Below, piece after piece: positions 12,295-63,101 of a DNA stretch of 64,000 bases. The stretch is from an uncultured Eubacteriales bacterium. GTDB taxonomy: Bacteria; Bacillota; Clostridia; Christensenellales; Borkfalkiaceae. The stretch is taken from NCBI GenBank assembly GCA_900548285.1, contig URKE01000001.1, forward strand, positions 21,274 to 85,273. Direction: 5' to 3'. The stretch's first letter is position 1, and the number at the start of each line of letters is the position of its first letter. The notes under the pieces were generated by a model, which was not told the DNA's origin, searched no databases, and saw only the letters and a program-made list of their open reading frames with translations. Position numbers and translations under genes: made by a program.

Positions 12295-13605
12295 ATGTTG
12301 AATTCCGATTTATTCATAAAAGGAGAAACGATTGCGGTCGCATTGTCGGGCGGGAAAGATTCCGTCTGTCTTTTCGATTTGCTGCTTTCGAAGTGCGAAG
12401 AATTCGGAATAACCGTCAAAGCAATCAACGTCGACCACGGAATACGCGGCGAAACTTCCGGGAGGGACAGTTTGTTTGTGAAGAATCTTTGCGAGAAGAA
12501 GGGTATTCCGCTTTTTTTCCGCAAAGTAGATTGTCCCGGATATTCCGCGGCAAACGGTTTGTCGGCGGAAGAGGGGGCGCGCGCGTTAAGATATAAGGTG
12601 TTTAACGAAGCGATTGACGGCGGTTTTTGCGATAGGGTGGCGACCGCGCATCATGCGGGCGACCGCGCCGAAACCGTTCTTTTCAATTTATTTCGCGGTA
12701 CGTCGCCGCTCGGTATCGTCGGAATAAACGACGTCACGCCGGACGGAAGAATAATCCGCCCCATTCTCGGTGTCGGGCGGGAACAGATAGACGCTTACGT
12801 AAAAGAGCGTAAACTCGATTACGTGGTCGATGAAACGAATTTTATGACCGATTACACGCGTAATTTCGTCAGGCTTGAAGTTCTGCCGCTTATAAAACAG
12901 AGGTTTCCGGAGGCCGAGAAGAGTATTCTGCGTTTCGCCGACACCGTAAAGGACGACGAAAACTACCTGCGAAGTCTTGCCGAAAAATCGTTGACGGAGA
13001 AAAACGGGGAAGTGTCTTTTCCGATTGATTTGCCAAAGCCGATTTTTATGCGTTCCGCCACGCTCGCCATGAAAAAACTCGGGATAAAAAAGGATTACGA
13101 AAAAATTCATCTCGAATCGGCGTATTCGCTGAAAAACGCCGAGAACGGAAAGTCGGTAACGCTTCCGAAAGGCGTCGTTGCGGTGAGGGATTACGGAAAG
13201 ATAACTTTTTATAAAAAAGAGGAAAAACAAGATTTCGAAAAGCCGTTTTCGCTCGGTGATTTTGATTTTCAAGGCAAGACGTACCGGTTTGAAATTGTTG
13301 ACGATTGCAATGCAAAAAGGGTTGATAATCGACTTATAGCCGACTTTGTTAAGATTCCGCAGGGCGCGGTTTTAAGAACGAGAAAGCCCGGCGATACGTT
13401 TGAAAAGTTCGGCGGCGGCGCGAAAAAACTGAAAGAGTACTTTATCGATAAGAAGATACCGGAAAGGGAGAGAGATAAAATTTTACTCCTTGCGAAAGAC
13501 AAAAAGGTATTTATTATTTGCGGAATTGAAATTTCCGACGCTATTAAAGTAGACAAAGCCACAAAAAATGTGTTACAATGTAGCATATACGACAACAGGC
13601 ACTAA
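12295..13605 (+). CDS. tilS: tRNA(Ile)-lysidine synthetase
   Basis: SGGKDS PP-loop, 436 aa. Conserved tilS-hpt order. Confidence 0.9.
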   Translation: MLNSDLFIKGETIAVALSGGKDSVCLFDLLLSKCEEFGITVKAINVDHGIRGETSGRDSLFVKNLCEKKGIPLFFRKVDCPGYSAANGLSAEEGARALRYKVFNEAIDGGFCDRVATAHHAGDRAETVLFNLFRGTSPLGIVGINDVTPDGRIIRPILGVGREQIDAYVKERKLDYVVDETNFMTDYTRNFVRLEVLPLIKQRFPEAEKSILRFADTVKDDENYLRSLAEKSLTEKNGEVSFPIDLPKPIFMRSATLAMKKLGIKKDYEKIHLESAYSLKNAENGKSVTLPKGVVAVRDYGKITFYKKEEKQDFEKPFSLGDFDFQGKTYRFEIVDDCNAKRVDNRLIADFVKIPQGAVLRTRKPGDTFEKFGGGAKKLKEYFIDKKIPERERDKILLLAKDKKVFIICGIEISDAIKVDKATKNVLQCSIYDNRH

Positions 13606-13620
13606 GGAGAAGCAAGAGAG

Positions 13621-14163
13621 ATGTACAACGAAGTTTTGGAAAAAACGCTTATCACCGAAGAACAGATACAAAAGAGAGTGACCGAACTCGCTAAACAGAT
13701 TGAAAATGATTATGCCGGCAAAGCGCCGGTGATCGTCGGTGTTCTTAAGGGCAGCGTTCTGTTTTATACCGATCTTATAAGACAAATCGATTTGCCGTTG
13801 ACCGTTGATTTTATGTCCATTTCCAGTTACGGCGCGGGCGTGAATTCTTCGGGCGAAGTTAAGATTATCAAGGATATCGACGGAAAAATCGGCGGAAAAG
13901 ACGTAATAATCGTCGAGGATATCGTTGACAGCGGCTATTCCATGAACTGTCTTTTGAAACTTTTCGGAACACGCTCGCCTAAAAGCGTTAAGGTGTGCGC
14001 GCTTTTAGATAAGCCGTCGAGAAGAGAAATCCCCGTGAAAATCGATTATACGGGATTCCAGGTCGCAAACGAATTCGTTGTCGGTTACGGTCTTGACTAC
14101 GACGGGCTTTATCGCAACATTCCGTTTATCGGTGTGCTTAAAAAAGAAGTTTACGAAAAGTAA
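13621..14163 (+). CDS. hpt: Hypoxanthine-guanine phosphoribosyltransferase
   Basis: VIVEDIVDSGYS PRPP-binding motif, 180 aa. Confidence 0.9.
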   Translation: MYNEVLEKTLITEEQIQKRVTELAKQIENDYAGKAPVIVGVLKGSVLFYTDLIRQIDLPLTVDFMSISSYGAGVNSSGEVKIIKDIDGKIGGKDVIIVEDIVDSGYSMNCLLKLFGTRSPKSVKVCALLDKPSRREIPVKIDYTGFQVANEFVVGYGLDYDGLYRNIPFIGVLKKEVYEK

Positions 14164-14200
14164 AAGATCGGGCTTGTCCTGCTTTGAATATTGTTTTATC

Positions 14201-14232
14201 GCCGCCCGCGGAAATCCGCGGGCGGTTTTTCT
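14201..14232 (+). terminator. Intrinsic terminator after hpt
   Basis: gccgcccgcggaaatccgcgggcggttttt. Confidence 0.7.
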
Positions 14233-14313
14233 GCTTTAATACTGTCGAAAAATGGCGAATAATCGACTTATAGGCTTGTTTTTCATCGCGTGAGCATATG
14301 TTTGCGCATATGT

Positions 14314-14475
14314 TTAGTTGTTAAAAACGTTATTCGTGTTTGTCGATGAATTGTTGTTGCAATTATAAGCCGTGGAGGATAAAAGCGCGAGAAGAAGCAA
14401 AACCTGCGTAAGGTTGATATATCCGTCCGCATACAAAAGATAAAGCAAACCTAAAAGAACTATGTTGGAATTCAT
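14314..14475 (-). CDS. Small hydrophobic protein (53 aa; N-terminal TM, Asn/Ser/Thr-rich tail), divergent from the ArsR regulator
   Basis: GGAGG 5 nt upstream of ATG. MNSNIVLLGLLYLLYADGYINLTQVLLLLALLSSTAYNCNNNSSTNTNNVFNN. Below the 60-aa cutoff of the ORF track. Confidence 0.4.
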   Translation of the reverse strand: MNSNIVLLGLLYLLYADGYINLTQVLLLLALLSSTAYNCNNNSSTNTNNVFNN

Positions 14476-14661
14476 AATACCTCCGAAAAAACAAAATTCT
14501 CTTTTATTATACCTTATGCGACAAAATTCGATTTTATGTTCCGTTGACTGTAACGATCGTTAAATAGTATAATTAAGACAATAAAACGCGGGCGATAAAT
14601 GATGAATAGTTTATATGAACGCTCCTGCATAATATGGCAAAAAAAATTGAGAGGTGGAAAA

Positions 14662-16058: not shown

Positions 16059-16250
16059 GATTCGTCCTCCGTGAATAATTTTTTTCGGTATCATTATACA
16101 CTTTTTTTTTGTCGTCTGCAATCGATTGAGGGGAGTTGCCGTCCGATTTTTTAAATTTTGGACAACAAACGCCAAAACGTCGCCTTTTTCGCGGAAAAAA
16201 GTTTACAAACACGCGAAAATCATATATAATGATATACGTAAAGTTATACG

Positions 16251-16351
16251 CTTGACGATTTTTCGGCGCGTAACGCGATTAATCCCGCGCTTGACGATTT
16301 TCGGCGCGTAACGCGATTAATCCCGCGCCCGATATTTTCGGCGCGGAACGG
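16251..16351 (+). repeat. 2.6 tandem copies of a ~39 bp unit (CTTGACGATTTTTCGGCGCGTAACGCGATTAATCCCGCG) in the manA 5' UTR
   Basis: Direct reading. Each unit carries a TTGACG -35-like hexamer and a GCGCG..CGCG dyad. Lies between the TTTACA-17-TATAAT promoter and the manA start. Confidence 0.8.
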
Positions 16352-16362
16352 AGAAAACGGAA

Positions 16363-17495: not shown

Positions 17496-19868
17496 ATGGA
17501 CTCGTATAAAGAATTAAGGGACGACGGACTCGTAAATCCGGAAAATATCATAGTCAGTCCCGAAATAAAAACCATACCGATGGTCGCGCTTCGCGGTAAG
17601 GTTATTTTGCCGAACGTTTTCACGTCGTTCGACGTGGGCAGGCTCAAATCGCTCGCCGCGATAAACGCTTCGGTAGATACGGACGAAGCGTTGATTTTTG
17701 TTTCCGCTCAGCGCGATGCCAAGGTGGAAGAACCTTCCGAAAAAGACGTTTGCAACGTCGGCACGGTTTGCAGAATAAAACACATAACCCGCATGCCGGG
17801 CGACAACATAAAAGTCAACGTAAACGCGCTTTTCGCCGCGGAGATAGTTTCTTTCGAGCCGAACGACAATTATTTTCTCGTAACGGTCAAGGAGAGAATC
17901 CCGGACGACTGCGACGACGCCGAAACGGAGGCTTATTTCCGCGTGGTGAGAACCGAACTCGCGGAATTTCTGAATATGCCCGAAGTTAAGGTCAACAAGG
18001 ACGTTTTCGCGAACGTGCTTGCGCTCGAAAAACCCGAGGAGTTCGTCAACGCCGCTTCATATAATATGAATTTCAAAGAGGGCGACAAACAGCAGATTCT
18101 CGAGTATTCTGCCATTAAGGAGAAACTCTACGCTTTTTTCAATTTCCTCGTTCACGAAAAGGAGATAATCAAAACCGAAAAAGAAATTTCGGATAAAGTT
18201 AAGTCGAGCGTTGAAAAAAGCCAGCGCGAGTATTATCTCAGAGAACGCCTGAAAGCGATTCATAGCGAACTCGGCGACGATGAGAACGAAAAAGACGAAC
18301 TCAAAGAGCGTATTCTGGCTAAAAAGATGCCGAAAGAGGTGGAGGAGAAGGCTCTCAAAGAGTTTTCGAGAATGGATAAAATGAATCCGTCCTCGCCCGA
18401 TTACACAGTGCTTTCCACTTATCTCGACTGGCTTTTAGATCTTCCTTTCAATGAGGCGAGCAAGGACAGAGAGAGTATTGCGGAGGCTAAAAAGATTCTC
18501 GAAGCCGACCATTACGGGCTTGAAAAAATCAAAGAGAGAATTATCGAATATCTTGCCGTGCTTAAACTCACCGGCAAAACGGGCGGTTCTATTCTTTGCC
18601 TTTACGGTCCTCCGGGCGTGGGCAAAACGTCAATCGCCAAATCGGTGGCGCGGGCGCTTGACAGAAAATTCGTGAGAATGAGTCTCGGCGGCGTTAAGGA
18701 CGAAGCCGAAATTCGCGGTCACAGAAAAACTTACGTCGGCGCGATGCCCGGCAGAATTATGTACGCGATGAAAGAGGCGGGAACGGTCAACCCCGTTATT
18801 CTGCTCGACGAAATAGATAAACTTTCCAGCGACCTTCGCGGCGATCCCGCGAGCGCGCTTCTCGAGGTTTTAGACCCCGAACAAAACGTCGCTTTCCGCG
18901 ACCGTTATCTCGAAATACCTTACGATTTGTCCAAGGTTATTTTCATCACCACGGCAAACTCGCTCGAAACTATCCCATCGCCCCTTCTCGACAGAATGGA
19001 GGTTCTGGAACTGAGCGGTTACACGAGAAACGAAAAATGCGAGATCGCAAAACGTTATCTCGTGCCGAAAGAAACGGTTAAAAATGGGCTTGACGTTAAA
19101 CGCGTTAAGTTTGAAGAAAGCGCCGTTTATCGACTTATAGACGGGTTTACGCGTGAAGCGGGCGTGAGAAATCTCGAAAGGGAGATAGGCTCGGTGTGCA
19201 GAAAAATCGCAACGGAAGTGGCGAGCGGAAAGACGAAAAAGAAATTCGATATCGACGATAAATCGATTGAAAAATATCTCGGCGCGGACAGATTCTCCTA
19301 TACGGACGAACTGAGAAACGACGAAGTGGGTTGCGCAACGGGACTTGCCTGGACGCAGGTCGGCGGAACGACGCTCCCCGTAGAAGTCGCTCTTTTCAAG
19401 GGAAAGGGCAACCTTTATCTCACCGGAAAACTCGGCGAAGTGATGCAGGAAAGCGCGAAAATCGCTTTGACTTACGTTAAACTTCACGCCGAAGAAATAG
19501 GCGTTGACGGAAAGAAATTCGAGGACTACGACGTTCATATCCACGTTCCCGAGGGCGCGACGCCCAAGGACGGACCGAGCGCGGGCGTAACGCTCGCAAC
19601 GGCGATAACTTCGGCGTTCACGGGCAAAAAAGTTCGCGGCGACGTGGCGATGACGGGCGAAATTACCTTGCGCGGAAAAGTTCTGCCTATCGGCGGGCTT
19701 AAAGAAAAGGCGCTCGCGGCGTTCAGACTGGGGATAAGAAACGTGATTATTCCCGACCGCAACAAAAAAGACCTCGAGGAAATACCCGACAACATAAGAA
19801 ACGAAATGAATTTCATTCCCGTTTCGTCCGTAGGCGAAGTCCTTAAAGTCGCCGTCCGCGAATTCTAA
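17496..19868 (+). CDS. lon: ATP-dependent protease Lon
   Basis: GPPGVGKTS Walker A, catalytic PKDGPSAGV Ser and Lys dyad. RBS AAGGAG. Confidence 0.95.
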   Translation: MDSYKELRDDGLVNPENIIVSPEIKTIPMVALRGKVILPNVFTSFDVGRLKSLAAINASVDTDEALIFVSAQRDAKVEEPSEKDVCNVGTVCRIKHITRMPGDNIKVNVNALFAAEIVSFEPNDNYFLVTVKERIPDDCDDAETEAYFRVVRTELAEFLNMPEVKVNKDVFANVLALEKPEEFVNAASYNMNFKEGDKQQILEYSAIKEKLYAFFNFLVHEKEIIKTEKEISDKVKSSVEKSQREYYLRERLKAIHSELGDDENEKDELKERILAKKMPKEVEEKALKEFSRMDKMNPSSPDYTVLSTYLDWLLDLPFNEASKDRESIAEAKKILEADHYGLEKIKERIIEYLAVLKLTGKTGGSILCLYGPPGVGKTSIAKSVARALDRKFVRMSLGGVKDEAEIRGHRKTYVGAMPGRIMYAMKEAGTVNPVILLDEIDKLSSDLRGDPASALLEVLDPEQNVAFRDRYLEIPYDLSKVIFITTANSLETIPSPLLDRMEVLELSGYTRNEKCEIAKRYLVPKETVKNGLDVKRVKFEESAVYRLIDGFTREAGVRNLEREIGSVCRKIATEVASGKTKKKFDIDDKSIEKYLGADRFSYTDELRNDEVGCATGLAWTQVGGTTLPVEVALFKGKGNLYLTGKLGEVMQESAKIALTYVKLHAEEIGVDGKKFEDYDVHIHVPEGATPKDGPSAGVTLATAITSAFTGKKVRGDVAMTGEITLRGKVLPIGGLKEKALAAFRLGIRNVIIPDRNKKDLEEIPDNIRNEMNFIPVSSVGEVLKVAVREF

Positions 19869-20879: not shown

Positions 20880-21110
20880 TAACAGTAGAGATAGAGGCGC
20901 AGGGCTTAAAAGTAACCTCGTTCATAACCCGTCGAAGGGGAACGATGCGAAAGGAAGTCTTGCCGAAACCGTTGCGCGTTCGCACCGCGCGGCAGGTTGG
21001 GCGTCGATAAAACATATCGGCGACTGTCGCTTTTTGCGGAGGGCTATCGTGATATCAGCGGATTTTCCCGTGAGTATTGCTATGCGGCTCTACTCACGGG
21101 TTTTTATTTT
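20880..21110 (+). ncRNA. Lysine riboswitch (L-box) with terminator expression platform
   Basis: 5' AGAGATAGAGGCGC and 3' GGAGGGCTATCGTG match the L-box P1 and flanking consensus recalled from the B. subtilis lysC leader. Terminator cccgtgagt...actcacgggttttt sits just upstream of the RBS of an amino-acid ABC transporter. Confidence 0.6.
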
Positions 21111-25287: not shown

Positions 25288-25692
25288 AAATCTTTGGGGC
25301 GGAGTGAAAATCTCCACCGGCAGTGAAGTTCCCTTTTTTCGGCGGCGGACAACGGTTTTGTCTGCAACCTAGCCACAGGTGATTGTGTTCGGACTCGGTC
25401 TTGCCATGTGTTTTTGACTAATACATCGTTGCGTTTCGCGTGTTATACGTATAGTATTAACGCGCTCACGCGCCTTGTCTTAGCCTAAAAACGCAAGGCA
25501 AGACTTGCTGGCAACCAAAACGGTCGGGCTGAAAACACGCGCTTTGACGGGGTGAAATTCCCCGACCGACGGTAAACCGTATGTCGGCAACGACGAATCT
25601 CTACGGTAAAGTCCGGATAAGAAAAGATTCATAAACTGCGAATCAAAGAAGTTTATTATTTGCCCCGTCCGATTTCGGACGGGGCTTTTCGG
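25288..25692 (+). ncRNA. FMN riboswitch (RFN element) of atypical length (~340 nt aptamer) plus terminator/sequester hairpin
   Basis: 5' half cttTGGGGCGGAGTGAAAATCTCCACCGGCAG. 3' half GGGGTGAAATTCCCCGACCGACGGTAAA...CGGTAAAGTCCGGATAAGAAAAGATTC. P1 pairs aatcttt with aaagatt. Expression-platform hairpin ccccgtccgatttcggacgggg sits immediately before RBS GGAGG. ECF S-component gene downstream, as for ribU. Confidence 0.55.
25391..25520 (+). repeat. Structured ~120 nt repeat element, copy 1 (inside riboswitch P3)
   Basis: Core GTTTTTGACTAATACATCGTT...TATTAAC...GTCTTAGCCTAAAAAC is ~85% identical to 62762-62885. Closed by stem gtcttgcc/ggcaagac. Confidence 0.7.
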
Positions 25693-27435: not shown

Positions 27436-28010
27436 TAGGGGGCGCGAACGGTAACGCGAACGCCGACAAACGCGAAAACCGAAGCGGACACAAAAACGTA
27501 AGCGAGAACGCCGACAAGCGCGAAAACCGAAGCGGACACAAAAACGTAAGCGAGAAAGGAGAAGAAATAACCGTCCGCAAGTGGGTAAGAGAGGACTGTT
27601 TCGCGGTTTCGGAGATCGAAAAACATTGTTTTTCCGATCCGTGGACGGAAGAAATGGTTATCGGTTCTTTTTCGGACGACTATTTTCTCGGCTACGTTGC
27701 CGAAACCGAGGGGAAAATTATCGGCTACATCGGTTTGTCGGTCGTTTTCGACACCGCCGACGTTCTTCTCGTCGCCGTGATTGAGAAATATCGCAGGCGC
27801 GGCGTTGCGAAAACTCTTCTCGCACGCGCTTTCGAAGAAGCGAGGGAAAACGGCGCGGAACGCGCGATGCTCGAAGTGGACGTTAAAAACGCGGCGGCAA
27901 TCGGGTGTTATCTTTGTTCCGGGTTTAAAAAAGTAGCCGAAAGAAAGAACTATTACGGAGCGGGGAAAGACGCTTTTATTATGGAGAAAATGTTATTAAA
28001 CGACTTATAG
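27432..28010 (+). CDS. rimI: Ribosomal-protein-alanine N-acetyltransferase RimI with N-terminal 2x16-aa tandem repeat extension
   Basis: GNAT motifs (RRRGVAKTLL). GTG start overlapping tsaB stop. No in-frame ATG upstream of the GNAT core. Confidence 0.65.
   Translation: MIGGANGNANADKRENRSGHKNVSENADKRENRSGHKNVSEKGEEITVRKWVREDCFAVSEIEKHCFSDPWTEEMVIGSFSDDYFLGYVAETEGKIIGYIGLSVVFDTADVLLVAVIEKYRRRGVAKTLLARAFEEARENGAERAMLEVDVKNAAAIGCYLCSGFKKVAERKNYYGAGKDAFIMEKMLLNDL
27459..27554 (+). repeat. Perfect 48-bp tandem duplication inside the rimI 5' coding region
   Basis: aacgccgacaaacgcgaaaaccgaagcggacacaaaaacgtaagcgag x2 (one A/G difference). Confidence 0.85.
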
Positions 28011-28051
28011 GCGGACTTTCCGCTATCGTTGAGGGGCGTGGCGAAGTCCTT

Positions 28052-28721: not shown

Positions 28722-30332
28722 ATGATTTATTTTTTTGTCGCCGCCTGTCTTTCGGCGGTATGCGTTTACGTCTGCTTCGGCAGAAAATTCTTCGCCGTTT
28801 TTCAGCAATGCGCTTATCGATGCGGTGAATTTTTCGGCGCGCTTAAAAAGGAGTGTAAAAACGAAATCGAGTATTTATCGACTTATAGCCTGACTTTTTT
28901 CGTTTATTCGCTTGTTTTTTCGCCGCTTTTCGCGCTTGACGACGTTTTGTTTTCAACGGTGTTTTTTCTCGGAACGTTTGCGTTCGCGCTCGGCGTTTTC
29001 CTGAAAAACCGTCCGGTGAAAAAGGTGAGAATAACCGCAAGATTCGCAAGGATGACTTTTGTTTCGGTTTTGCTCTTTGTTTTGTCGACAGTCGGCTTTT
29101 GTTACGTCGGTTATCTTGTCGTCGGTTATGATATTCCGCTTTGCCTTATCCTTTCGGCGTCGATAACGGTCGACGCGCTGACGTTGCCGTTTTTTATCTG
29201 CGCGGGGTGCGGCGCGTGGCTGCCGTACGACAGGTTAACGTTTGCAAAATCCGTAAAAAGGTGCAAGCGTAAACTCGACGGTTTACCGGGTCTTATCAGA
29301 ATCGGCATAACGGGCAGTTACGGTAAAACTTCCGTCAAAAACATTCTCGAAAAGATGCTTTCGGTAAAATATCGGGTAGTGGCGACGCCACTTTCTTACA
29401 ACACTCCGCTCGGGATTTGTAAAGCCGCGGAGAAAATAAACGCCGAAACGGAAATTTTTATTGCGGAAATGGGCGCGAGAAAGCCGGGCGACATAAAGGA
29501 ACTTTGCAATATCGTCCGCCCGGACGTGGGGATTATAACGGGAATTTGCGGTCAGCATCTGGAAACTTTTTTATCTGTCGAAAACGTAAAATCGACCAAA
29601 AACGAACTTATAGCCGCGCTTCCGCTCGACGGCTATGCGTTTTTCTCCGCCGACAGCGCGGGCAGCCGCGAACTTTTTGAAAAGTGCGGTTTAAGCAAGT
29701 GTCTTGCCGGGGCGAGCGGCGGCGAAGTGTTCGTCGAATCGGTCGAAGAGCGGGAAGACGGGACGCATATCGCGATGAATATCGGCGGCAAAGCGTATTC
29801 GTTCACGACCGAACTTCGGGGACGGGCTAACGCGGGGAATATATGCCTTGCGGCGGCAGTCGCTCTCAAAACCGGAGTTTCGCCCGAAAGGATCGTCGTT
29901 GCGGCGGAAAGACTGAAACCATCGCCGCACAGGCTCGAAGTTATCAGAGCGAACGGCGTGATCATAATCGACGACAGTTACAATGCCAACGTGGAGAGCG
30001 TGAAAGCCGCCGCGGAAGTACTCGGGTGTTTCAAAGGAAAAAAATACGTCGTCACGCCGGGTGTCGTCGAAGGGGGAGCGTCGGCGGAAAAAATCAACGC
30101 GGACGTTGGGGAAATTCTTTCGCGCGTGGCGGACGAAATAATCGCCGTCGGGTTTAATTCTGCCGACATCGCGGAGGGAGCGGATAAGGGAGCGGATAAG
30201 GGAACGCATAAGAGAACGGCGGTCGTCGAGGCGAACAATATCGAAGAGGCGAAAACGATTCTCAACGCGAAACTGAAAAAAGGAGACGCGGTACTGTTTC
30301 TTAACGATATTCCCGACAGATACGGCGCGTGA
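28722..30332 (+). CDS. Mur ligase family protein (MurF-like central and C-terminal domains) with ~190-aa polytopic membrane N-terminal domain
   Basis: GITGSYGKTS P-loop. Mur ligase middle and C-terminal domains. The N-terminus has ~5 hydrophobic helices instead of the MurF domain 1. Followed by ddl. Confidence 0.65.
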   Translation: MIYFFVAACLSAVCVYVCFGRKFFAVFQQCAYRCGEFFGALKKECKNEIEYLSTYSLTFFVYSLVFSPLFALDDVLFSTVFFLGTFAFALGVFLKNRPVKKVRITARFARMTFVSVLLFVLSTVGFCYVGYLVVGYDIPLCLILSASITVDALTLPFFICAGCGAWLPYDRLTFAKSVKRCKRKLDGLPGLIRIGITGSYGKTSVKNILEKMLSVKYRVVATPLSYNTPLGICKAAEKINAETEIFIAEMGARKPGDIKELCNIVRPDVGIITGICGQHLETFLSVENVKSTKNELIAALPLDGYAFFSADSAGSRELFEKCGLSKCLAGASGGEVFVESVEEREDGTHIAMNIGGKAYSFTTELRGRANAGNICLAAAVALKTGVSPERIVVAAERLKPSPHRLEVIRANGVIIIDDSYNANVESVKAAAEVLGCFKGKKYVVTPGVVEGGASAEKINADVGEILSRVADEIIAVGFNSADIAEGADKGADKGTHKRTAVVEANNIEEAKTILNAKLKKGDAVLFLNDIPDRYGA

Positions 30333-32488: not shown

Positions 32489-32570
32489 AACGTTGCTTTT
32501 TTCGCAAGTGTGTGCTAAAATATATTCAGGTCTGTTCGCGGGTAAACCGCGACTAAAAGCGAGCGAAAAA

Positions 32571-33230
32571 ATGTTTGTCGTGATATTAAGCGAAAAAAAT
32601 ACGAGCGGCGTTTACGTTGCTTTTGAAAACGGAATTCCGAGCGGTTTTTCGGGGTATGATTTTTTTGAGATCGCAGATTGTTCGCCCGATTGTGCGGAGG
32701 CGTTTGCCGCAAGCGAAAAAATATACGATGAGGTTTATCCGCCGCAAAGAGCGGAAGAGATAGAAAAAACGGGGAGCGAAAAGGTAAGGCAGGAAAAACT
32801 CGCCGTGTGGAAACTTCTGTTTGTCGCCATAGAGAGAAAATTCGGTTATAAGCCCGAAGAATTGAAGTTTTCAAAAACGGAAAACGGGAAGTGGATTTGC
32901 GATAAATTATGGTTTTCGCTCAGTCATTCTCACGGCGCGTCGGCGGTGATCGTGTCCGACAAACCTTGCGGGATAGACGTTGAATATAAGGTCGATTTTT
33001 TAAAAAAGTCCGCCGATAAGTCGTTTATCGAGGCTTTTTTGAATCGAATAGGCGAATCGGCGAGCGATTTCGGGACGATTTCCGCCGAAGAGATTTTGTC
33101 GCTCTGGACAAAAAAGGAAAGCCTTTATAAAATGACGGGCGAGGGGGTTTTTTCACCGAAAAAAATAACGCCGGGAAACGAAACGAAAAGTTTCGTCGTC
33201 GGCGATTACGTGTTCTCCGTCACGGAGTAA
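32571..33230 (+). CDS. 4'-phosphopantetheinyl transferase (Sfp/AcpT-type)
   Basis: CGIDVE and WTKKESLYK motifs. Confidence 0.7.
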   Translation: MFVVILSEKNTSGVYVAFENGIPSGFSGYDFFEIADCSPDCAEAFAASEKIYDEVYPPQRAEEIEKTGSEKVRQEKLAVWKLLFVAIERKFGYKPEELKFSKTENGKWICDKLWFSLSHSHGASAVIVSDKPCGIDVEYKVDFLKKSADKSFIEAFLNRIGESASDFGTISAEEILSLWTKKESLYKMTGEGVFSPKKITPGNETKSFVVGDYVFSVTE

Positions 33231-33245
33231 GTTAATGAAAAATCA

Positions 33246-33507
33246 TAGGGATTCCATTCGTCATCACTAATTACCGAAAAGGCGTCTTTTTCGCCATTTT
33301 CCGCGACCGTTCGGGCGCAGTACGTCAAGTACAGCAACCCTCACGCTCGCAAAAAATCATCAAAAAATGCGCTCTTTTCGGTGCGAAGCATTTTTGCGGA
33401 TGAGAAACCGACCGCATCGCGGCTCGTTTAGGCAAGGCATCCGCATAAATCGGTTTATCACCGCAAAAATAGTTAGTGATAACGAATGGAATCCCTACCG
33501 AAAAAAA
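33246..33507. mobile_element. MITE-like element: ~260 bp flanked by 25-nt terminal inverted repeats TAGGGATTCCATTCGTYATCACTAA
   Basis: TIRs at 33246-33270 (+) and 33483-33507 (-). A third solo copy at 23537. No coding capacity. Confidence 0.5.
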
Positions 33508-43668: not shown

Positions 43669-44510
43669 AGAAGATTTTAATAACGGGCGCGAACAGTTAT
43701 ATAGGCGTTTCGTTTGAAAAATATATGGAAAAATTCGGCGACGAATATTCGGTGGACACGGCGGATATGATCGGCGACGAATGGAAAAACAAAGATTTTT
43801 CGACTTATAGCGTGGTTTTTCACGTTGCGGCGGTCGTTCACAAAAAAGAAACGAAAGACCTTGTTTCGCAGTATTACGCAGTAAACAGGGATCTGGCGGC
43901 AGAAGTTGCCGAAAAAGCGAAATCGGACGGTGTGAAGCAATTCATTTTTCTCAGTTCGATGAGCGTTTACGGAATCGTTACGGGAAAAATCGCGGCTGTT
44001 ACCGAGCCGAAGCCGAAGAGCCATTACGGAAAATCGAAATTGCAGGCGGAACAGAAACTTTTACCGATGAACGACGACGCTTTTAAGGTATGCGTGTTGC
44101 GCCCGCCGATGATTTACGGAAAAGGTTGCAAAGGAAATTATCGGGCTTTGGAGAAGTTTGCGGGGAAATTGCATTTCTTCCCGTACGTCGCCAACGAAAG
44201 ATCGATGCTTTACGTCGACAATCTTGCGGCTTTCGTAAAACTCATGATAGACAAAGACGAATCAGGCGTGTTCTTCCCGCAAAACGACGAATACACGAAC
44301 ACTTCTCTTATGGTTAAGAGCATCGCCGCCGCGCGCGGCAGAAAAATGCGGCTCGTTAAAGGTTTCACGCCGCTCATCAGATTTCTCGGCTTGTTTACGG
44401 GGCTTGTAAACAAAGCGTTCGGCAACCTTACTTACGACAAATCGCTTTCTTATCCCGATTTCAAACCGGAGTTCGGGCTTGAAGAATCGATAGTCCTTTC
44501 GGAAACGTGA
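43665..44510 (+). CDS. NAD-dependent epimerase/dehydratase
   Basis: GANSYIG Rossmann, YxxxK. Confidence 0.75.
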   Translation: MKKILITGANSYIGVSFEKYMEKFGDEYSVDTADMIGDEWKNKDFSTYSVVFHVAAVVHKKETKDLVSQYYAVNRDLAAEVAEKAKSDGVKQFIFLSSMSVYGIVTGKIAAVTEPKPKSHYGKSKLQAEQKLLPMNDDAFKVCVLRPPMIYGKGCKGNYRALEKFAGKLHFFPYVANERSMLYVDNLAAFVKLMIDKDESGVFFPQNDEYTNTSLMVKSIAAARGRKMRLVKGFTPLIRFLGLFTGLVNKAFGNLTYDKSLSYPDFKPEFGLEESIVLSET

Positions 44511-44511
44511 T

Positions 44512-45624
44512 ATGAAAAAAATAATGCTTATCTGCGGCGCGTCGCACACCGTGTTGAATTTCAGAAGCAGCCTTGTTTCCGCGCTCATAGAGAATAATTG
44601 CGAGGTCGCGGTGGTTGCGCTCGATTCCGAAAAAAAAGACGAAATCGAAAAACTCGGCGTTAAGGTTTTCGTTTGCGGCGAAAACAAAAACAGGGACGTT
44701 TCGCCCTTTAAACTTTTAAAATTGAAGAAGAATTATCTTCGGATAATAAGAGAATTCCGCCCCGATACGGTTTTCACCTTTATGATAAAACCCAACACTT
44801 TCGGCGCGCTTGCGGCGAAAAAAGCGGGGGTTAAAAATATCTTTTCGATGGTCGAGGGGCTTGGCGACGTCTTTATCAACAACGGATTGAAATGGAAATT
44901 GATTCGCCGCGCCGCGTGTTTTCTTTACAAAAAATCCTTTAAAAATTGTCGTAAAGTTTTCTTTCTGAACGGCGACGACAAAGCGGAGTTTATAAAGCGG
45001 AAACTCGTTCGCGAAGAGCAGTGCGAAATTATTTTCGGGATAGGCGTAGACCTTGAAAAGTTCGCCTATAAGCCGATTAAAGCGAAAAAATCGTTTTTAA
45101 TGGTCGCAAGAATGATCAGGAACAAAGGCGTTTTCGAGTTCTGCGAGTGCGCGAGAAAAGTTAAAGAAAAACACCCCGACGCCGTGTTTGATTATCTCGG
45201 CTGGGAGGGCAACGTAAAGGTTGCGGATATAAAAGAATATCTCGACGACGGAAGCGTTAATTATCTCGGCGTGACGAGCGACGCGCGCCCCTATTACGAG
45301 GAATGTACGGCTCTTATTCTGCCGTCTTACCGCGAGGGAATGCCTGTTTCCGTTATGGAAGCGCAGGCGACGGGCAGAGCGGTTATCGTTACAAACGTTG
45401 CGGGGTGCAGGGAAACCGCGCGCGACGGTTATAACGGCTTTATCGTGCCCGCGGCGAACGCCGACGCTTTGGCGGAAAAGGCGATATTTATGATAGAACA
45501 CCCCGAAGAAACGAGGAAAATGGGCGAAAACGCGAGGTTGTTCGCCGAAGAAAACTTCGACCGGAAAAAAATCAACGAAAGAGTGTTGGCGATATCGGAG
45601 AAAATATCAGAGGAACAGGCATGA
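44512..45624 (+). CDS. Glycosyltransferase family 4
   Basis: GT-B fold EX7E-like region SYREGMPVSVMEAQATG. Confidence 0.85.
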   Translation: MKKIMLICGASHTVLNFRSSLVSALIENNCEVAVVALDSEKKDEIEKLGVKVFVCGENKNRDVSPFKLLKLKKNYLRIIREFRPDTVFTFMIKPNTFGALAAKKAGVKNIFSMVEGLGDVFINNGLKWKLIRRAACFLYKKSFKNCRKVFFLNGDDKAEFIKRKLVREEQCEIIFGIGVDLEKFAYKPIKAKKSFLMVARMIRNKGVFEFCECARKVKEKHPDAVFDYLGWEGNVKVADIKEYLDDGSVNYLGVTSDARPYYEECTALILPSYREGMPVSVMEAQATGRAVIVTNVAGCRETARDGYNGFIVPAANADALAEKAIFMIEHPEETRKMGENARLFAEENFDRKKINERVLAISEKISEEQA

Positions 45625-52828: not shown

Positions 52829-54157
52829 ATGATAAAAGTTATCACTTACGGAACGTTCGACGTTCTTCATTACGGACATATCAGACTTCTCGAAAGGGCA
52901 AAAGCGCTCGGCGACGAACTGATCGTCGGCGTAACGAGCGACGATTACGACCGCACGAGGGGCAAAATAAACAATCAGCAAACGCTCGGCGAAAGAATCA
53001 AGGCGGTTCGTTCGCTCGGCATTGCAGACGAAGTTATCGTCGAGGAATACGACGGGCAGAAAATAGACGATATCAGAAAATACGGCGTGGATATTTTCGC
53101 CGTCGGTTCGGATTGGGAGGGTAAATTCGATTATCTGAACAATTTTTGCAAGGTCGTTTATCTGCCGCGGACGACGGGCGTTTCGAGTACGGACATAAGA
53201 ACGGAAAGCAGAATGATACGGCTCGGCGTGGTGGGAGAAATTCCGCTGCTCCGAAAATTCGTTAACGAAAGCAGATTCGTTAACGGCTGCAAAATTTCGG
53301 GTTTATGCTCGCAAAACAAAAAGGACGCCGAAGAATACGGCGACCTTGAACTCATAACGGACGATTTCGATAAAATTCTGGAAGCGTCGGACGCGCTCTA
53401 TATCGCGTCGCATCCGACTTTGCACTATAAGCAGATAAAAAAGGCTTTGAAAAACGGCAAGCACGTTATTTGCGAAAGCCCCGTCGCGCTGAGCGGCGAG
53501 GAGTGCGACGAACTTTACGAAATAGCCGGGAAGAGCGGGCTTATCCTTATGGACGCGATCAAAACGGCGTATTCCACCGCATATGCGAGAATGCTTCTTT
53601 TGATCGAAAGCGGCGCGATCGGCAAGGTCGTTTCCGTCGACGCAACCTGTACGAGTTTGCGCGTGAACGAGAACGGCGATCCCGATTATTACAAAACGAA
53701 TTGGAACAGCAGTTGCGATTGGGGGCCTAACGCCATTCTTCCCGTGTTTCAACTTCTCGGTACGAAATATAAAGATATACGCATAATTTCCTCTTTTGCG
53801 GACGAGGATAAGGATTATGATTTGTTCTCGAAATTCGATTTCACTTACGATTCCGCCGTCGCGACGGTAAAGGTCGGCAAGGGCGTCAAGTCGGAGGGCG
53901 AACTCGTGGTTTCGGGCACTAAAGGCTACGTTTACGTTCCCGCGCCCTGGTGGAAAACCGATTATTTCGAGATCCGTTACGAGAACCCCGCCGACAAAAA
54001 AAGATACTTTTATCAACTCAACGGCGAGGGGATAAGATACGAAATCGTCGCGTTCATCAAGGCGATAGAGAGCGGCAGAGTGATCGATATGATTCCCCGC
54101 GAGGTGTCGCGCGCGATTTGCGAAGTGGTGTCGAGTAAAAACAGGGTAGAGATATAA
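52829..54157 (+). CDS. Bifunctional glycerol-3-phosphate cytidylyltransferase-like (TagD-like) / Gfo-Idh-MocA oxidoreductase fusion
   Basis: The N-terminal 130 aa are nearly collinear with B. subtilis TagD (ITYGTFDVLHYGHIRLLERAK...GSDWEGKFDYL...VVYLPRT). The C-terminal ~300 aa carry a Rossmann GVVGEIP motif and Gfo/Idh/MocA-type features. Confidence 0.7.
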   Translation: MIKVITYGTFDVLHYGHIRLLERAKALGDELIVGVTSDDYDRTRGKINNQQTLGERIKAVRSLGIADEVIVEEYDGQKIDDIRKYGVDIFAVGSDWEGKFDYLNNFCKVVYLPRTTGVSSTDIRTESRMIRLGVVGEIPLLRKFVNESRFVNGCKISGLCSQNKKDAEEYGDLELITDDFDKILEASDALYIASHPTLHYKQIKKALKNGKHVICESPVALSGEECDELYEIAGKSGLILMDAIKTAYSTAYARMLLLIESGAIGKVVSVDATCTSLRVNENGDPDYYKTNWNSSCDWGPNAILPVFQLLGTKYKDIRIISSFADEDKDYDLFSKFDFTYDSAVATVKVGKGVKSEGELVVSGTKGYVYVPAPWWKTDYFEIRYENPADKKRYFYQLNGEGIRYEIVAFIKAIESGRVIDMIPREVSRAICEVVSSKNRVEI

Positions 54158-54241
54158 ATCGGTCTATAAGTCGATTAATGCCGATTTTTGTCGATAATCG
54201 GCTGAATTTCGCGAGGACTACATAAGTCGCTTTGGCGAGAT

Positions 54242-61539: not shown

Positions 61540-62001
61540 ATGTCTTATCAGTCTACATTGAACGAATATCTTCAAGTAATCGTTGGAAAAAAATTAGAAA
61601 AGTTGAACCTTGCTTGTGAAATGATGATGTTCTCATTTGAAGACTATGCTTTTCACGCATTAGGCTTAACAAGAATTATTCAAGATAATGATATCCTTGT
61701 AACGACTCTTGATTATCAAAATTGGGATAGGGAAAATGATGAGAATAACGACGAATCGTATTTTGTAAAAAAACACCGCGATAAGATTGAAGGTGGTGTT
61801 GTAATTTCGGTAAGTGTTCCCCCTTTATACGACGTTGAAATTGTTATGGATAATGGTATAAAAATCGAATTGTTTGTTAAAAATGGTTATAACCATTTTG
61901 ATGATGAAAATGAACAATGGGTATTTTTTAGACAAGATGACCATGCTCACCCTTTTATTAGTGTGTGGAGCAAATCTGTGGATATAGAAACAAACTGGTA
62001 A
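61540..62001 (+). CDS. Hypothetical protein, strongly AT-rich orphan gene
   Basis: 153 aa. GC about 15 points below the neighbours. Bracketed by terminators. Confidence 0.5.
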   Translation: MSYQSTLNEYLQVIVGKKLEKLNLACEMMMFSFEDYAFHALGLTRIIQDNDILVTTLDYQNWDRENDENNDESYFVKKHRDKIEGGVVISVSVPPLYDVEIVMDNGIKIELFVKNGYNHFDDENEQWVFFRQDDHAHPFISVWSKSVDIETNW

Positions 62002-62102
62002 TCTTTTAATTACAAACCTATATTTCTTTTATGGATAATTTTTTATAAAGTGTAGCACGCTATACTTTGCAAGCAAAGTTGTGTGTTTTTCAAAGCAAAA
62101 AT

Positions 62103-62135
62103 GAAAAGACTAACGAAAATTTTCGTTAGTCTTTT
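62103..62135. terminator. Bidirectional terminator
   Basis: aaaagactaacgaaaattttcgttagtctttt. Confidence 0.75.
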
Positions 62136-62183
62136 ATAATGCTCTAAAAAATCCCTATGGGAACTGCGTTTTTACGTTGTTTG

Positions 62184-62678
62184 TTATTTGTCGGTTTTAA
62201 CGTCTATAGGCATGCCGCAATAAGGGCATGTCGGGTTGGCTTCGTCGGAAAAATAATCGACCGGAGCGCCGCAACTCGGGCATTTCGCGCGGAGCGCGGT
62301 TCTGGCGGCTTTGGCGTTGTTGTTGTAAAACAACTTTTCGCCGTCGAACAACAAACCCGTTATATATCTTTTTTCGATTGCCGTCCGGATATCGTTTCTG
62401 ACGATTTCTTCGTTCTTACCGGTCTGAACGGCGATGTCCTTAACGCTATAAATATGTTCGGACATAACGCATTGAACGGTGTGATTCAGCGATACCGCCG
62501 AGCCGTAAAGGGAAAAGATAATCGGGCAAGCGTAAAAATCGAACGCGGTGAAAACGATTCCCATAACGAGAATAAGCGTGTTTTTCCCCGCGCCGATAAT
62601 AATCATCGGTATGCCGCCGACCAGAAGGATGGCGGAAAGTATTCCAAAAAACAATAACGTACGGATTTTCTTTTTCAT
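62184..62678 (-). CDS. Membrane protein with C-terminal zinc-ribbon (CPSCG...CPYCG)
   Basis: N-terminal signal/TM, 2 TM helices, C-terminal double CxxC. Confidence 0.5.
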   Translation of the reverse strand: MKKKIRTLLFFGILSAILLVGGIPMIIIGAGKNTLILVMGIVFTAFDFYACPIIFSLYGSAVSLNHTVQCVMSEHIYSVKDIAVQTGKNEEIVRNDIRTAIEKRYITGLLFDGEKLFYNNNAKAARTALRAKCPSCGAPVDYFSDEANPTCPYCGMPIDVKTDK

Positions 62679-62761
62679 AGTTGATATTATATACCGAAAT
62701 GTTTTTTATGTCAACCATTATTCTTTGATTGCATGCCAGACAAGAATAATACGAACCGTGG

Positions 62762-62885
62762 TCTGACGGCGAGTTTTTGACTAATACGTCGTTACGCTCG
62801 CGGCTTATACGTCAAGTATTAACCCGTTCGCGTGCCTCGTCTTAGCCTAAAAACTCACCGTCAGACTCGCAACCGACCAAAGCGC
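62762..62885 (+). repeat. Structured ~120 nt repeat element, copy 2 (intergenic)
   Basis: Core GTTTTTGACTAATACGTCGTT...TATTAAC...GTCTTAGCCTAAAAAC closed by stem gtctgacggcgag/ctcaccgtcagac. Outer inverted repeat tgccagacaag (62746) and cttgtctggca (62999). Confidence 0.7.
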
Positions 62886-63101
62886 CGATATTTTCGATGA
62901 TTTTTGACAAAGGCGAACGCAGACGTACTTGCCGTACTTCAAGCGAGAATTTGGCAAAAAGTGCGAAAATTGCGGCGTTTTGGCAAGGTTCGTTTTAATC
63001 TTGTCTGGCATAGTCGCGGCATAAAAAATTATAAAGAGAAAACCTGCCGTTAAACAACTTATAGACGACTTTTTGCGGATTGATTATAAAAAATCTTCTG
63101 C

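Follow-up and report, generated by a model that had tools for sequence, protein, structure and literature searches.

The window analysed here is a 64,000-nucleotide stretch of DNA from an uncultured Eubacteriales bacterium and comprises a core-genome part of 50.7 kb and a 12-kb mobile island. Genes of the core-genome part include tilS, lon and those for a rimI-like acetyltransferase, a Mur-ligase-family protein and a Clp/Hsp100-type ATPase. Twelve clear copies of a 36-bp motif are distributed over this part (1 per 4.2 kb), eight of them inside genes (Table 1), and a position weight matrix (PWM) scan found no copy in the mobile island. The scan of the window is bimodal: 12 sites score at least 28 bits, the next reach at most 19 bits, and nothing lies between. 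The copy at 63039..63074 adjoins a conserved long-hairpin element.

Table 1. Copies of the motif in the window, with their genetic context
Position	Strand	Context	PWM (bits)	Core	Reading
13314..13349	+	tilS (PF01171/PF11734)	34.5	CGACTTATAG at 13330	N-R-L-I-A (in frame)
14248..14283	+	Spacer, 100 nt past stop of phosphoribosyltransferase gene	37.9	CGACTTATAG at 14264	
19115..19150	+	lon	38.6	CGACTTATAG at 19131	Y-R-L-I-D-G-F
27985..28020	+	Overlaps end of rimI-like acetyltransferase gene	34.2	CGACTTATAG at 28001	N-D-L-stop
28863..28898	+	Mur-ligase-family gene 28722-30332	36.2	CGACTTATAG at 28879	S-T-Y-S
33004..33039	-	Antisense in ORF 32493-33230 (ACPS-like, Pfam)	38.5	CGACTTATCG	
40318..40353	+	Gene for 890-aa Clp/Hsp100-type ATPase	28.0	CGGCTTATAG	N-R-L-I-G-G
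41908..41943	+	Same ATPase gene, second copy	31.6	CGACCTATAG	N-R-P-I-G-S-F
43785..43820	+	NAD-dependent epimerase gene (PF01370)	29.7	CGACTTATAG at 43801	S-T-Y-S
45056..45091	-	Antisense in group-1 glycosyltransferase gene 44512-45624 (Pfam)	30.7	CGGCTTATAG	
54154..54189	-	Between convergent genes; core starts 7 nt past stop of gene 52829-54157	41.1 (highest in window)	CGACTTATAG at 54164	
63039..63074	+	Between convergent genes 62157-62657 (+) and 63102-63539 (-)	32.2	CAACTTATAG	

The core of the motif is the 10-mer CGACTTATAG, whose excess had been pointed out in a preliminary description of the window. All seven exact sites given there are borne out, and the excess is real, with seven copies seen where dinucleotide shuffles predict 0.09 and Markov models of orders 1-5 predict 0.09-0.25. 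No 12-mer of the window is more frequent than the related word ATCGACTTATAG, whose five copies tie with a tandem-repeat word. That the match extends into the flanks of the 10-mer also holds. Four supposed one-mismatch relatives (57560, 57883, 58629 and 59380) actually carry two to three mismatches, score at PWM background level and are absent from the 40 best PWM matches of the window, and two true minus-strand copies, at 33014 and 45066, had been overlooked. Thus, the excess, the flanks and the occurrence in different frames and in spacers stand, whereas the four relatives and, as described below, the strand polarity do not.

The full extent of the element had also been missed. Its consensus, A4-N2-GCCKATAA-TCGAC-TTATMGGC-N3-T4 with a 5' A-run of ~4-5, is roughly two-fold symmetric, and the palindrome has a single base, G+2, at its centre. 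Position -2 is A in 99% of sites and +6 is T in 100%, with T/T at -4/+8. On either side of this 36-bp centre, A/T-rich peaks recur in phase with the motif, ~10.8 bp apart on average, out to ~±60-70 bp (z = 17 versus random anchors); the same holds for coding and for intergenic copies. Each arm therefore comprises ~50 bases of phased A/T-rich DNA, and the whole element measures ~140 bp. The arms mirror one another (correlation 0.6-0.68) about core positions 2-3, and the flanks of different copies have only this phasing in common, not sequence. Such phasing is a signature of bent or wrapped DNA, and from a symmetric centre set in phased A/T tracts we infer that the DNA may be pre-bent or wrapped around a symmetric, putative protein, with the 10-mer as the core of a putative double-stranded-DNA recognition site. 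Each site carries ~35 bits of information, far more than the 13 bits that would be enough to specify the sites.

Copies occur in three reading frames, in antisense and in spacers, and the second copy in the ATPase gene writes its conserved peptide with CGA, the rarest Arg codon in the window (5% of Arg codons), in agreement with the earlier interpretation of a DNA-level signal rather than a peptide motif. The peptide constraint probably helps this particular copy exist. Deviations from the consensus depend on the frame and fall exactly where the consensus would make a stop codon. In the Mur-ligase-family gene, the upstream TAAT is changed to TTAT, which avoids an in-frame TAA stop, and in the epimerase gene it is TTTT; the rimI-like gene ends with the core's TAG as its stop codon. 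The lon copy (AVYRLIDGF) aligns ungapped with AIIGIIRYY and AILRVISEY of solved Lon structures (PDB). This bears out the view that the motif is not a mobile-element remnant, and no longer common repeat was found around the copies. The copies in lon and other genes were made by point substitution, not insertion.

Gut Clostridia of an order-level clade (Christensenellales-type MAGs) share the motif, the central 5 bp of which vary from lineage to lineage. An 18-base-specified scan returned more than 118 stretches, and 75 of the 80 loci listed belong to Christensenellaceae, Christensenella or 'Clostridia bacterium' gut MAGs. We collected 184 sites from 40 related genomes (GC 35-49%), 82 of them ascertained with a fixed scan pattern, which places the motif in at least 40 Christensenellaceae/'Clostridia bacterium' gut MAGs. 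The central 5 bp have genome-specific dialects, with TCGGC enriched in JAFQEA01 (5/8 versus 5/95, p = 1e-4) and CGGGC in CAYNLN01 (3/3 versus 5/100, p = 3e-4). The motif is kept among genomes just 72-82% identical in DNA; individual sites turn over between species, and some orthologous copies are retained. The lon copy persists in three other species (L013, L014 and, with the core variant CGGC, L011), and L014 has orthologues of the copies at 27985..28020 and 28863..28898, at its positions 12177 and 13047. The L011 position aligned to 14248..14283 has no motif and only a 2-nt gap, in a poor alignment. Searches of 2.9 M viral contigs, 7.3 Gb of plasmids and 2.3 Gb of phages gave chance-level or partial matches only, and the motif matches no Rfam family.

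Spacers make up 14% of the DNA and contain about two thirds of the 184 sites, with coding sites accounting for 32%; spacers also hold 20 of 32 sites among those outside the fixed scan pattern. Spacer copies are strongly stop-proximal (58/75, p = 2e-6), sitting just past stop codons, and their density per kb is 2.3 in convergent, 1.7 in tandem and 0.75 in divergent spacers.

Thirteen of fourteen copies had been placed on one strand in the preliminary description. The 12 PWM sites divide into nine on the plus and three on the minus strand (binomial p = 0.15), and across the 184-site set 68 sites run with the local GC skew and 67 against it (42:37 outside the fixed scan pattern), unlike ORFs, which follow the skew by 282:98 kb. 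With respect to neighbouring genes, 38 sites have the same and 37 the opposite orientation, coding sites are 34 sense to 25 antisense, and the syntenic region of L011 carries three exact copies on the opposite strand. The motif thus follows the direction of neither replication nor transcription, and of the earlier interpretation the DNA-level signal stands but the strand polarisation does not. Since there is no orientation bias across the clade, in skew or relative to genes, the Chi-like and KOPS/AIMS-like readings are rejected. A replication-polar signal (a Chi-like hotspot or a KOPS/SRS-like translocase guide), as first suggested, draws on the nine of 12 window copies that lie on the G-rich plus strand; given these splits, and a motif far longer than known Chi or KOPS, it has next to no probability.

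Among the three analogies offered originally (uptake signal, Chi-like, KOPS-like), the uptake signal alone appears to survive, and we tentatively read the motif as a USS/DUS-like self-DNA tag spread by biased transfer, with a probability of about 0.4. The cells' own DNA-uptake (or transfer) machinery would preferentially capture tag-bearing fragments, which would be recombined into the chromosome, and the tag would build up at tolerant positions, namely in one open reading frame, on the antisense strand and, most of all, just past stop codons. The bent arms may place the site at the tip of a DNA loop, where it could be captured. The excess, clade spread, lack of polarity, substitution origin, excess information and dialects are all consistent with such a tag, as are the spacer enrichment, the turnover between species, the absence from the mobile island and the merely chance-level or partial matches in viral, plasmid and phage DNA. 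Because hundreds of ~35-bit copies would be hard to maintain by per-site selection and were not dispersed by transposition, the motif most likely spread by molecular drive, as in the uptake signals of Pasteurellaceae and Neisseriaceae. Other observations count against the tag. USSs generally number at least 1,000 per genome, and their classical density of 1 per 1-2 kb is several-fold above that of the motif. Sequence-specific uptake is described for Neisseria and Haemophilus only in the literature searched. Known USS/DUS are short and asymmetric, without two-fold symmetry or 50-bp phased arms, features more in keeping with a resident wrapping protein, gyrase for instance, and the stop-proximal spacer copies could reflect a gene-end function rather than mere tolerance. 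To our knowledge, no uptake-signal kind of tag has been described in Gram-positive bacteria, nor sequence-specific uptake in a Firmicute or Clostridia. If correct, the uptake reading would therefore make this a kind of self tag new to Gram-positive bacteria.

The main rival, rather unlikely but well ahead of the others, is an array of high-affinity sites for a resident two-fold symmetric DNA-bending or -wrapping protein. This protein could be DNA gyrase (each copy then being a 'strong gyrase site', an idea put forward for E. coli REP/BIME-2), a DNABII (IHF/HU-like) homodimer that binds sequence-specifically and makes a U-turn, or another nucleoid protein; sites about every 4 kb, preferentially at gene ends, would manage supercoils or pin plectoneme tips. 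The mirrored arms and their phasing in coding and spacer copies favour it, and the layout equals that of the motif obtained by Topo-Seq for E. coli gyrase, which is 130 bp long with its centre at -16..19, arms at -63..-17 and 20..66 and a period of 10.75 bp. Gyrases of three species (SHAN-seq) have 10-11 bp periodic arms and prefer -2A/+6T, as found here, and a location near stop codons agrees with gyrase action downstream of transcription units. However, -4G/+8C, the other preference reported as consistent for all type IIA enzymes, is replaced by T/T, and the palindrome is centred on a single base rather than a 4-bp stagger. The gyrase motif is also degenerate, unlike the ~35-bit centre, whose maintenance by per-site selection would be difficult, and lineage dialects are unexpected for a conserved enzyme. 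As regards DNABII, we take the A-tract, 8-nt gap and AATCGAnnnnTAG to resemble the IHF consensus of an A-tract and WATCAANNNNTTR, but we know of no sequence-specific IHF in Firmicutes. The evidence for drive applies equally to a tag for other horizontal transfer, such as a pac-like signal for a domesticated phage, gene-transfer agent or DNA-export machine, in which an oligomeric DNA-recognition subunit would wrap bent DNA and the sites would spread by uptake-signal-type drive. Small-terminase-type recognition may use such bent or wrapped architecture. Nevertheless, phage-like or GTA-like genes adjoin none of the copies examined, viral contigs and phage genomes essentially lack the motif, and the gene-transfer agents known to us package without sequence preference, making this version improbable.

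Slightly less probable again is an RNA hairpin, a weak bidirectional intrinsic terminator or 3'-end stabiliser in which, whichever the orientation, an A-run and a U-run enclose the fold GCCgAUAA-loop-UUAUaGGC. The quasi-palindrome between A4 and T4 and the placement past stop codons, densest in convergent spacers, would suit it, and some spacer copies have additional stem pairs specific to their site (z = 4.6 versus permuted arms), with 16% versus 6% folding at -12 kcal/mol or below. Overall, however, chimeras that join left and right arms from unrelated sites fold at least as well as real sites, so the pairing potential stems from the conserved sequence itself, and the third of copies that is intragenic, sense and antisense, has equal hairpin potential. 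No window copy was called a terminator in the scanned stretches (12.5-32.5 kb and 44-64 kb), including 54154..54189 in the consensus scan, and the copy with its core at 14264 follows a separate strong canonical terminator (14201-14226) that ends ~20 nt (block edge) upstream. The lack of an Rfam match and arms phased far beyond the hairpin, for which there is no RNA explanation, agree that the site is not read as RNA. Still more doubtful is a REP/MITE-like repeat spread by a transposase such as RAYT, its coding copies being secondary. A ~36-bp imperfect palindrome in both orientations after genes recalls REP elements, and the variable region of one strain holds a Y1 transposase fragment; yet no motif copy lies near that fragment, the plasmid and phage collections gave no match beyond chance-level or partial ones, most window copies are intragenic, the lon copy is gap-free even against distant Lon proteins, flanks are alike in phasing and not in sequence, and the motif is constant across genomes so divergent, whereas REPs are species-specific.

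Compared with known systems, Chi and KOPS/SRS are likewise over-represented chromosomal words found also inside genes, but at 5-8 nt they are much shorter and strongly co-oriented with replication. HIP1 (GCGATCGC) of cyanobacteria is a clade-wide palindromic word in excess in coding and non-coding DNA, without known mobility and of unsettled function; it is 8 bp long, far denser and without long conserved flanks or phased arms. BIME-2 elements are dispersed palindromic spacer repeats cleaved by gyrase, but REP/BIME spread by transposition and lie strictly outside genes, whereas the motif has a third of its copies within genes, where they were made by substitution. The gyrase motif shares two-fold symmetry, a ~36-bp centre, two ~47-bp arms with G/C-A/T alternation at ~10.75 bp, A at -2, T at +6 and a preference downstream of genes; it differs in being degenerate with -4G/+8C, as opposed to a near-invariant centre with T/T and a one-base palindrome centre. 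IHF sites presumably share a ~35 bp footprint, an A-tract, 8 nt, a WATCRAnnnnTWR-like element and sharply bent DNA, but are asymmetric with ~12-15 bits. USS (Pasteurellaceae) and DUS (Neisseriaceae) have a 9-12-bp asymmetric core instead of a 36-bp symmetric centre with phased arms on both sides, occur at ~1 per 1-2 kb rather than ~1 per 4 kb, form terminators as inverted pairs where the motif copies are single, and belong to hosts outside the Firmicute/Clostridia lineages, in which the uptake role is a candidate one. Like the motif, they are strongly over-represented, conserved family- or order-wide with lineage dialects, present in both orientations and not polarised by replication, introduced into coding DNA by substitution where the frame tolerates it, enriched in spacers and near gene ends and richer in information per site than needed, and the Haemophilus USS has helically phased A/T tracts in its flanks.

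The motif is centred on the exact 10-mer CGACTTATAG, which occurs seven times in the window, just as the preliminary description had counted, compared with 0.09 copies expected from dinucleotide-preserving shuffles and 0.09-0.25 from window-built Markov models of orders 1-5. Chance or base composition is thereby ruled out as the source of the excess. With five copies, ATCGACTTATAG shares first place among the 12-mers of the window with a tandem-repeat word. Conservation of the aligned copies extends into the flanks beyond the 10-mer, and the position-weight matrix (PWM) of the motif spans -16 to +20, with the core numbered +1 to +10. Scanning the window with this matrix reveals 12 sites at 28-41 bits and three marginal ones at 16-19 bits, the remainder scoring 10 bits or less. 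All 12 lie between 13.3 and 63.1 kb, one per 4.2 kb over 50.7 kb, and no PWM site is found in the first 12.2 kb, a low-GC island. The consensus, AAAAA-nn-GCC-K-ATAA-TCGAC-TTAT-M-GGC-nnn-TTTT, is an imperfect inverted repeat with an asymmetric 5-bp centre. Seven one-mismatch relatives had also been proposed. Three of these are genuine, whereas the other four carry two to three mismatches and represent background, because they are absent from the 40 best PWM matches of the window; two true copies on the - strand had been overlooked.

The remaining features of the window are collected with the motif copies in the table. Other repeated words, GGCAAGCGAAAA and CCGAAAGCGAAA, are not dispersed motifs but mainly local in-frame tandem repeats; two such tracts, encoding an E/K/A-rich low-complexity peptide, account for most of the other frequent 12-14-mers. 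The island, which is strain-variable and lies beside three tRNA genes, carries genes for a large serine recombinase, an HpaII-like endonuclease, a C5 methylase, Vsr and a Mob_Pre relaxase. Its content differs between strains, one of which has an IS200-like Y1 transposase fragment. A separate element of ~110 nt, GGTCT...GTTTTTGACTAATACGTCGTT...AAGTATTAAC...CTTGTCTTAGCCTAAAAAC...AGACT, forms a long hairpin and also occurs in other genera of the clade. Of the 43 pairs that RNAalifold predicts in it, eight show compensatory double changes. Rfam gives no match, even at E <=1, and the element may be either palindromic DNA or a structured RNA not yet described. Its copy at 62.7 kb is followed by ~100 further conserved nucleotides and then by the motif copy at 63055. 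One non-coding stretch of ~170 nt, also with no Rfam match, is 82-87% identical to stretches in three loci of other genomes (L185, L156 and L182), and three direct repeats in a divergent spacer look like operator sites.

Positions of the motif copies and of other features in the window and in loci fetched from related genomes
Feature	Location	Position	Strand	Remark
Exact 10-mer	window	13330, 14264, 19131, 28001, 28879, 43801	+	
Exact 10-mer	window	54164	-	
One-mismatch copies	window	40334, 41924, 63055	+	
Further true copies	window	33014, 45066	-	
Background matches	window	57560, 57883, 58629, 59380		
Motif copies at new places	L011	289, 1832, 12529	-	
Strain-variable island	window	1-12200		39-41% GC
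Large serine recombinase gene	window	3173-4681	-	in island
Three tRNA genes	window	11758-12081		
Three direct repeats, ~37 bp	window	16229-16345		CGCGGGATTAATCGCGTTACGCGCCGAAAA; spacer between aldolase (-) and mannose-6-phosphate isomerase (+) genes
Lysine riboswitch	window	20884-21054		clear match
FMN-riboswitch-like match	window	25540-25628		sub-threshold, 30 bits vs gathering score 66; upstream of ECF-transporter S-component gene
ECF-transporter S-component gene	window	25707		
In-frame tandem repeat	window	25784-25850		unit 24 nt
In-frame tandem repeat	window	43565-43640		unit ~21-36 nt
Non-coding stretch	window	33241-33410		
Long-hairpin element	window	25392-25520, 62755-62885		
Long-hairpin element	L197	7694-7822		
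Long-hairpin element	L179	6458-6585		
Long-hairpin element	L184	about 6475-6733	-	
Y1 transposase fragment	L003	3612-3809		one strain

Contigs encoding a Lon protein identical to that of the window occur in 202 blocks of public assemblies, the matches listed being ENA metagenome assemblies, and the motif is also present in relatives whose Lon is 80-86% identical. Some copies are orthologous: two relatives, L013 and L014, retain the one in lon, and L014 also has those of the Mur ligase gene and of the rimI stop codon. In a further relative, L011, copies occur at new places on the opposite strand. As a degenerate pattern the motif reads TWAWCGACTTATAG, and 185,579 species genomes were scanned with TAATCGACTTATAGGCNNNNTT, which specifies 18 bases and fixes TAAT, GGC and TT. 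More than 118 stretches matched, and 75 of the 80 loci among the matches listed belong to MAGs whose titles read Christensenellaceae, Christensenella sp., Clostridia bacterium or Clostridiales bacterium, derived from the gut of human (Hadza, Nepal and other cohorts), goat, roe deer, sheep and buffalo. With the PWM, 184 sites were collected across 40 genomes (GC 35-49%), some of them orthologous between genomes and hence not fully independent, and with heuristic gene calls in the fetched loci. Since the scan pattern fixes TAAT, GGC and TT, these columns are biased in 82 of the 184 sites, and analyses sensitive to this ascertainment were run on the 103 sites not fixed by the pattern.

Four of the five outliers among the 80 listed loci represent one homologous protein-coding region of unrelated phyla, in Zixiibacteriota (L130, L134 and L136) and Prolixibacteraceae (L153). 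They reach only 14-22 bits, below threshold, showing that a conserved peptide is able to reproduce the core by coincidence. One locus labelled as an Acidiphilium MAG (L160) has a full-flank copy of 33 bits, and its contig may be wrongly binned. As a negative control, the exact 14-mer TAATCGACTTATAG occurs once each in 107 viral contigs, which is the chance level, with motif-like flanks in only two of them; curated plasmids (7.3 Gb) and phages (2.3 Gb) gave chance partial matches only. The motif is common to the clade, where it co-evolves with a putative DNA-binding reader. In L013 (GCA_964317065.1, CAYCMN010000014.1), from a common gut relative with 80% Lon identity to the window, the lon copy stands alone in 22 kb, where ~5 would be expected at the window density (Poisson probability of <=1, ~0.03). 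This may be a lineage with a decaying motif and, if so, would be helpful in the search for the reader gene.

The DNA of the clade set is 86% coding, and 59 of the 184 sites (32%) fall in coding sequence, with 75 in tandem, 28 in convergent and 11 in divergent spacers; another 11 lie at the edges of loci. Spacer densities are 1.7, 2.3 and 0.75 per kb for tandem, convergent and divergent spacers, respectively. Copies in tandem spacers are mostly closer to the upstream stop codon (58 of 75; p = 2e-6), and 31 touch it. Among the sites not fixed by the scan, the motif centre holds ~35 bits, compared with the ~13 bits that would suffice for one site per 4.2 kb. The central 5 bp are genome-specific: TCGGC is found in 5 of 8 sites in JAFQEA01 and 5 of 95 elsewhere (p = 1e-4), and CGGGC in 3 of 3 in CAYNLN01 and 5 of 100 elsewhere (p = 3e-4).

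Eight of the 12 window copies are intragenic, lying in sense orientation in tilS, lon, the Mur ligase gene, the Clp ATPase gene (two) and the epimerase gene, and antisense in an ACPS-like ORF and a glycosyltransferase gene. Their occurrence in three frames, in antisense and in spacers excludes a peptide motif, and the Clp copy at 41924 (NRPIGSF) is the sole one helped by a conserved peptide. The lon copy aligns gap-free with solved Lon structures (AVYRLIDGFTREAGVR in the window, AIIGIIRYYTREAGVR and AILRVISEYTREAGVR in the structures), indicating that the motif was written in by substitutions that altered several residues and excluding insertion of a mobile element as the origin of the coding copies. 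On both points the preliminary description stands. Nor are the copies part of a longer dispersed repeat, as there is no extended homology around them; the arms, which are the A/T flanks, share just the phasing of A/T versus G/C, with A about equal to T. The sense copies distribute over the frames 18:8:1, favouring the single fully open frame; of the other frames of the full consensus, one contains TAA and another TAG. Frame-0 copies carry CGA, the rarest Arg codon of the window (5%), in the two frame-1 copies TTAT or TTTT replaces TAAT, and the motif's TAG is the stop codon of one gene.

The arms reveal a further regularity. Peaks of A/T are phase-locked to the motif at about -58, -47, -35, -24, -14, -3, +7, +18, +28, +39, +51 and +62, with a mean spacing of 10.8 bp that continues far past the 36-bp centre. 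The Fourier amplitude of the arms is 3-4.5%, compared with at most 1.1% at 1,181 control anchors (AAAW-N27-TTTW) and 0.5 ± 0.2% in 1,000 random-anchor sets (z = 17 for the real arms), which rules out a genome-wide 11-bp periodicity brought in by A4...T4 anchoring. The periodicity is equal in ORF copies (n = 80) and spacer copies (n = 102), and the left arm correlates with the mirrored right arm about core positions 2-3 (r = 0.6-0.68). Phasing and mirror symmetry together are a predicted signature of continuous DNA curvature over ~13 helical turns, and the symmetric site is likewise predicted, from its sequence, to be bent or wrapped.

From very high information per site, an estimated several hundred copies per genome, an origin by substitution even where protein sequence suffers, dialects and absence from foreign DNA, we infer a molecular drive, of which this combination would be the population-genetic signature. 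The best-understood molecular drive is biased DNA uptake followed by recombination, as with the uptake sequences USS and DUS. By analogy, the motif may be a USS/DUS-like tag spread by biased uptake and recombination, a tentative reading to which we give a probability of roughly 40%. A literature search found no description of the motif, and the 10-mer and its complement appeared only in unrelated eukaryotic, viral and other-bacterial work, apparently as incidental strings. The same search found no link between names in Christensenell- and uptake sequences, the literature containing such names with 'natural competence' consisting of microbiome surveys, and, among the retrieved papers, no sequence-specific uptake outside Neisseria and Haemophilus.

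Two-fold symmetry, a 140-bp wrapped geometry and stop-proximal placement fit better with a wrapping protein resident at each copy than with uptake. Gyrase, a DNABII-type protein or another nucleoid protein could fill this role, which we regard as possible but rather unlikely. The copies would then be not transfer tags but a hard-wired, genome-wide array, at ~1 per 4 kb, of sequence-specific nucleoprotein complexes, each with ~140 bp of pre-bent DNA wound around a symmetric protein; this picture is equally doubtful. If true, it would amount to positioned 'bacterial chromatin' or a supercoil-management lattice that extends even into conserved coding sequence and evolves together with its reader throughout an order of gut Clostridia. 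The E. coli gyrase motif determined by Topo-Seq has a centre at -16 to 19 and arms at -63 to -17 and 20 to 66 with a period of 10.75 bp, and in a three-species study palindromic -4G/+8C and -2A/+6T preferences were consistent across enzymes, the arms being periodic at 10-11 bp. The motif has the same ~130-bp two-fold symmetric layout with 10-11-bp periodic arms as a site of this type IIA topoisomerase and, in a register centred on CGAC, shares -2A/+6T (99% and 100%). However, -4G/+8C is missed, with T at both positions (99% and 100%), and a one-base shift brings no rescue. Thus, the geometry of gyrase is shared but one of its defining base preferences fails, which counts against the gyrase version in particular. 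That the copies serve as a pac-like or other transfer tag appears improbable.

Marginally less probable again is an RNA hairpin or terminator, even though the consensus is foldable, with a stem GCCgATAA / TTATaGGC between an A-run and a T-run. Covariation of column pairs in fixed register is weak (at most 8% excess), and real sites overall fold no better than chimeras of unrelated arms (-7.0 versus -6.4 kcal/mol, p = 0.21; with more sites, -7.4 versus -6.5 kcal/mol, p = 0.066). A hairpin maintained by compensatory changes is therefore ruled out. Extra site-specific stem pairs are seen in spacer copies (z = 4.6; coding copies, z = 1.2), a modest excess that points to a minority co-opted as real hairpins, as is known for some copies of USS and DUS. 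No motif copy was called as a terminator in the window stretches 12.5-32.5 kb and 44-64 kb, and that at 14264 lies just 3' of a separate terminator with an 11-bp stem. At gathering threshold, the only Rfam matches in the window are the lysine riboswitch and the three tRNAs, and no motif copy coincides with any of them. Relative to the genes on both sides, copies in tandem spacers are 38 in the same and 37 in the opposite orientation, unlike Rho-independent terminators, from which the lack of calls and the chimera-level folding also set them apart. Orientation likewise bears on the strand polarity that the preliminary description had reported and likened to Chi or KOPS. The window has nine copies on the + and three on the - strand, which is not significant (binomial p = 0.15). 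Long ORFs follow the local GC skew (282 kb : 98 kb), so that skew serves as a proxy for replication direction; against it, exact cores lie 38 with and 42 against, all PWM sites of the clade set 68 with and 67 against, and sites not fixed by the scan 42 : 37. Within genes, 34 copies are sense and 25 antisense. This absence of polarity excludes Chi-like and KOPS-like functions, leaving a polar signal extremely improbable, and argues against a strand-specific RNA or single-strand reading; the motif is read as double-stranded DNA. It is probably not mobile either, and a REP-like mobile repeat is very improbable. REP and BIME are strictly extragenic, whereas genes contain 8 of the 12 copies in the window and 59 of the 184 in the clade set. 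The RAYT (Y1 transposase) gene associated with REP and BIME is flanked by the repeats; no motif copy was found within the 4.9 kb examined around the sole Y1 fragment seen.

Christensenellales are a major gut group, mostly uncultured. A role as an uptake or transfer tag would make the motif the first sequence-specific 'self-DNA' signal of a Gram-positive lineage and would imply active gene exchange within this group; adding it to DNA might then render these bacteria transformable. An architectural or gyrase-type site would instead be a clear example of chromosome-structure information taking precedence over the choice of codons and amino acids in conserved genes, lon among them. On either reading, binning of the clade gains a sharp taxonomic marker in the motif, and a 150-bp motif fragment is a ready bait for the reader protein.

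Classical USS and DUS number at least 1,000 copies per genome, about one per 1-2 kb, whereas the motif is sparser, with 12 PWM sites in 50.7 kb. It resembles them in three further traits. Both orientations are used evenly with respect to GC skew (68:67), copies are built by substitution within genes with a bias of frame, and they are enriched in spacers and at gene ends. The motif is also shared at family level, across 40 genomes, and like USS and DUS it has dialects, here TCGGC and CGGGC.
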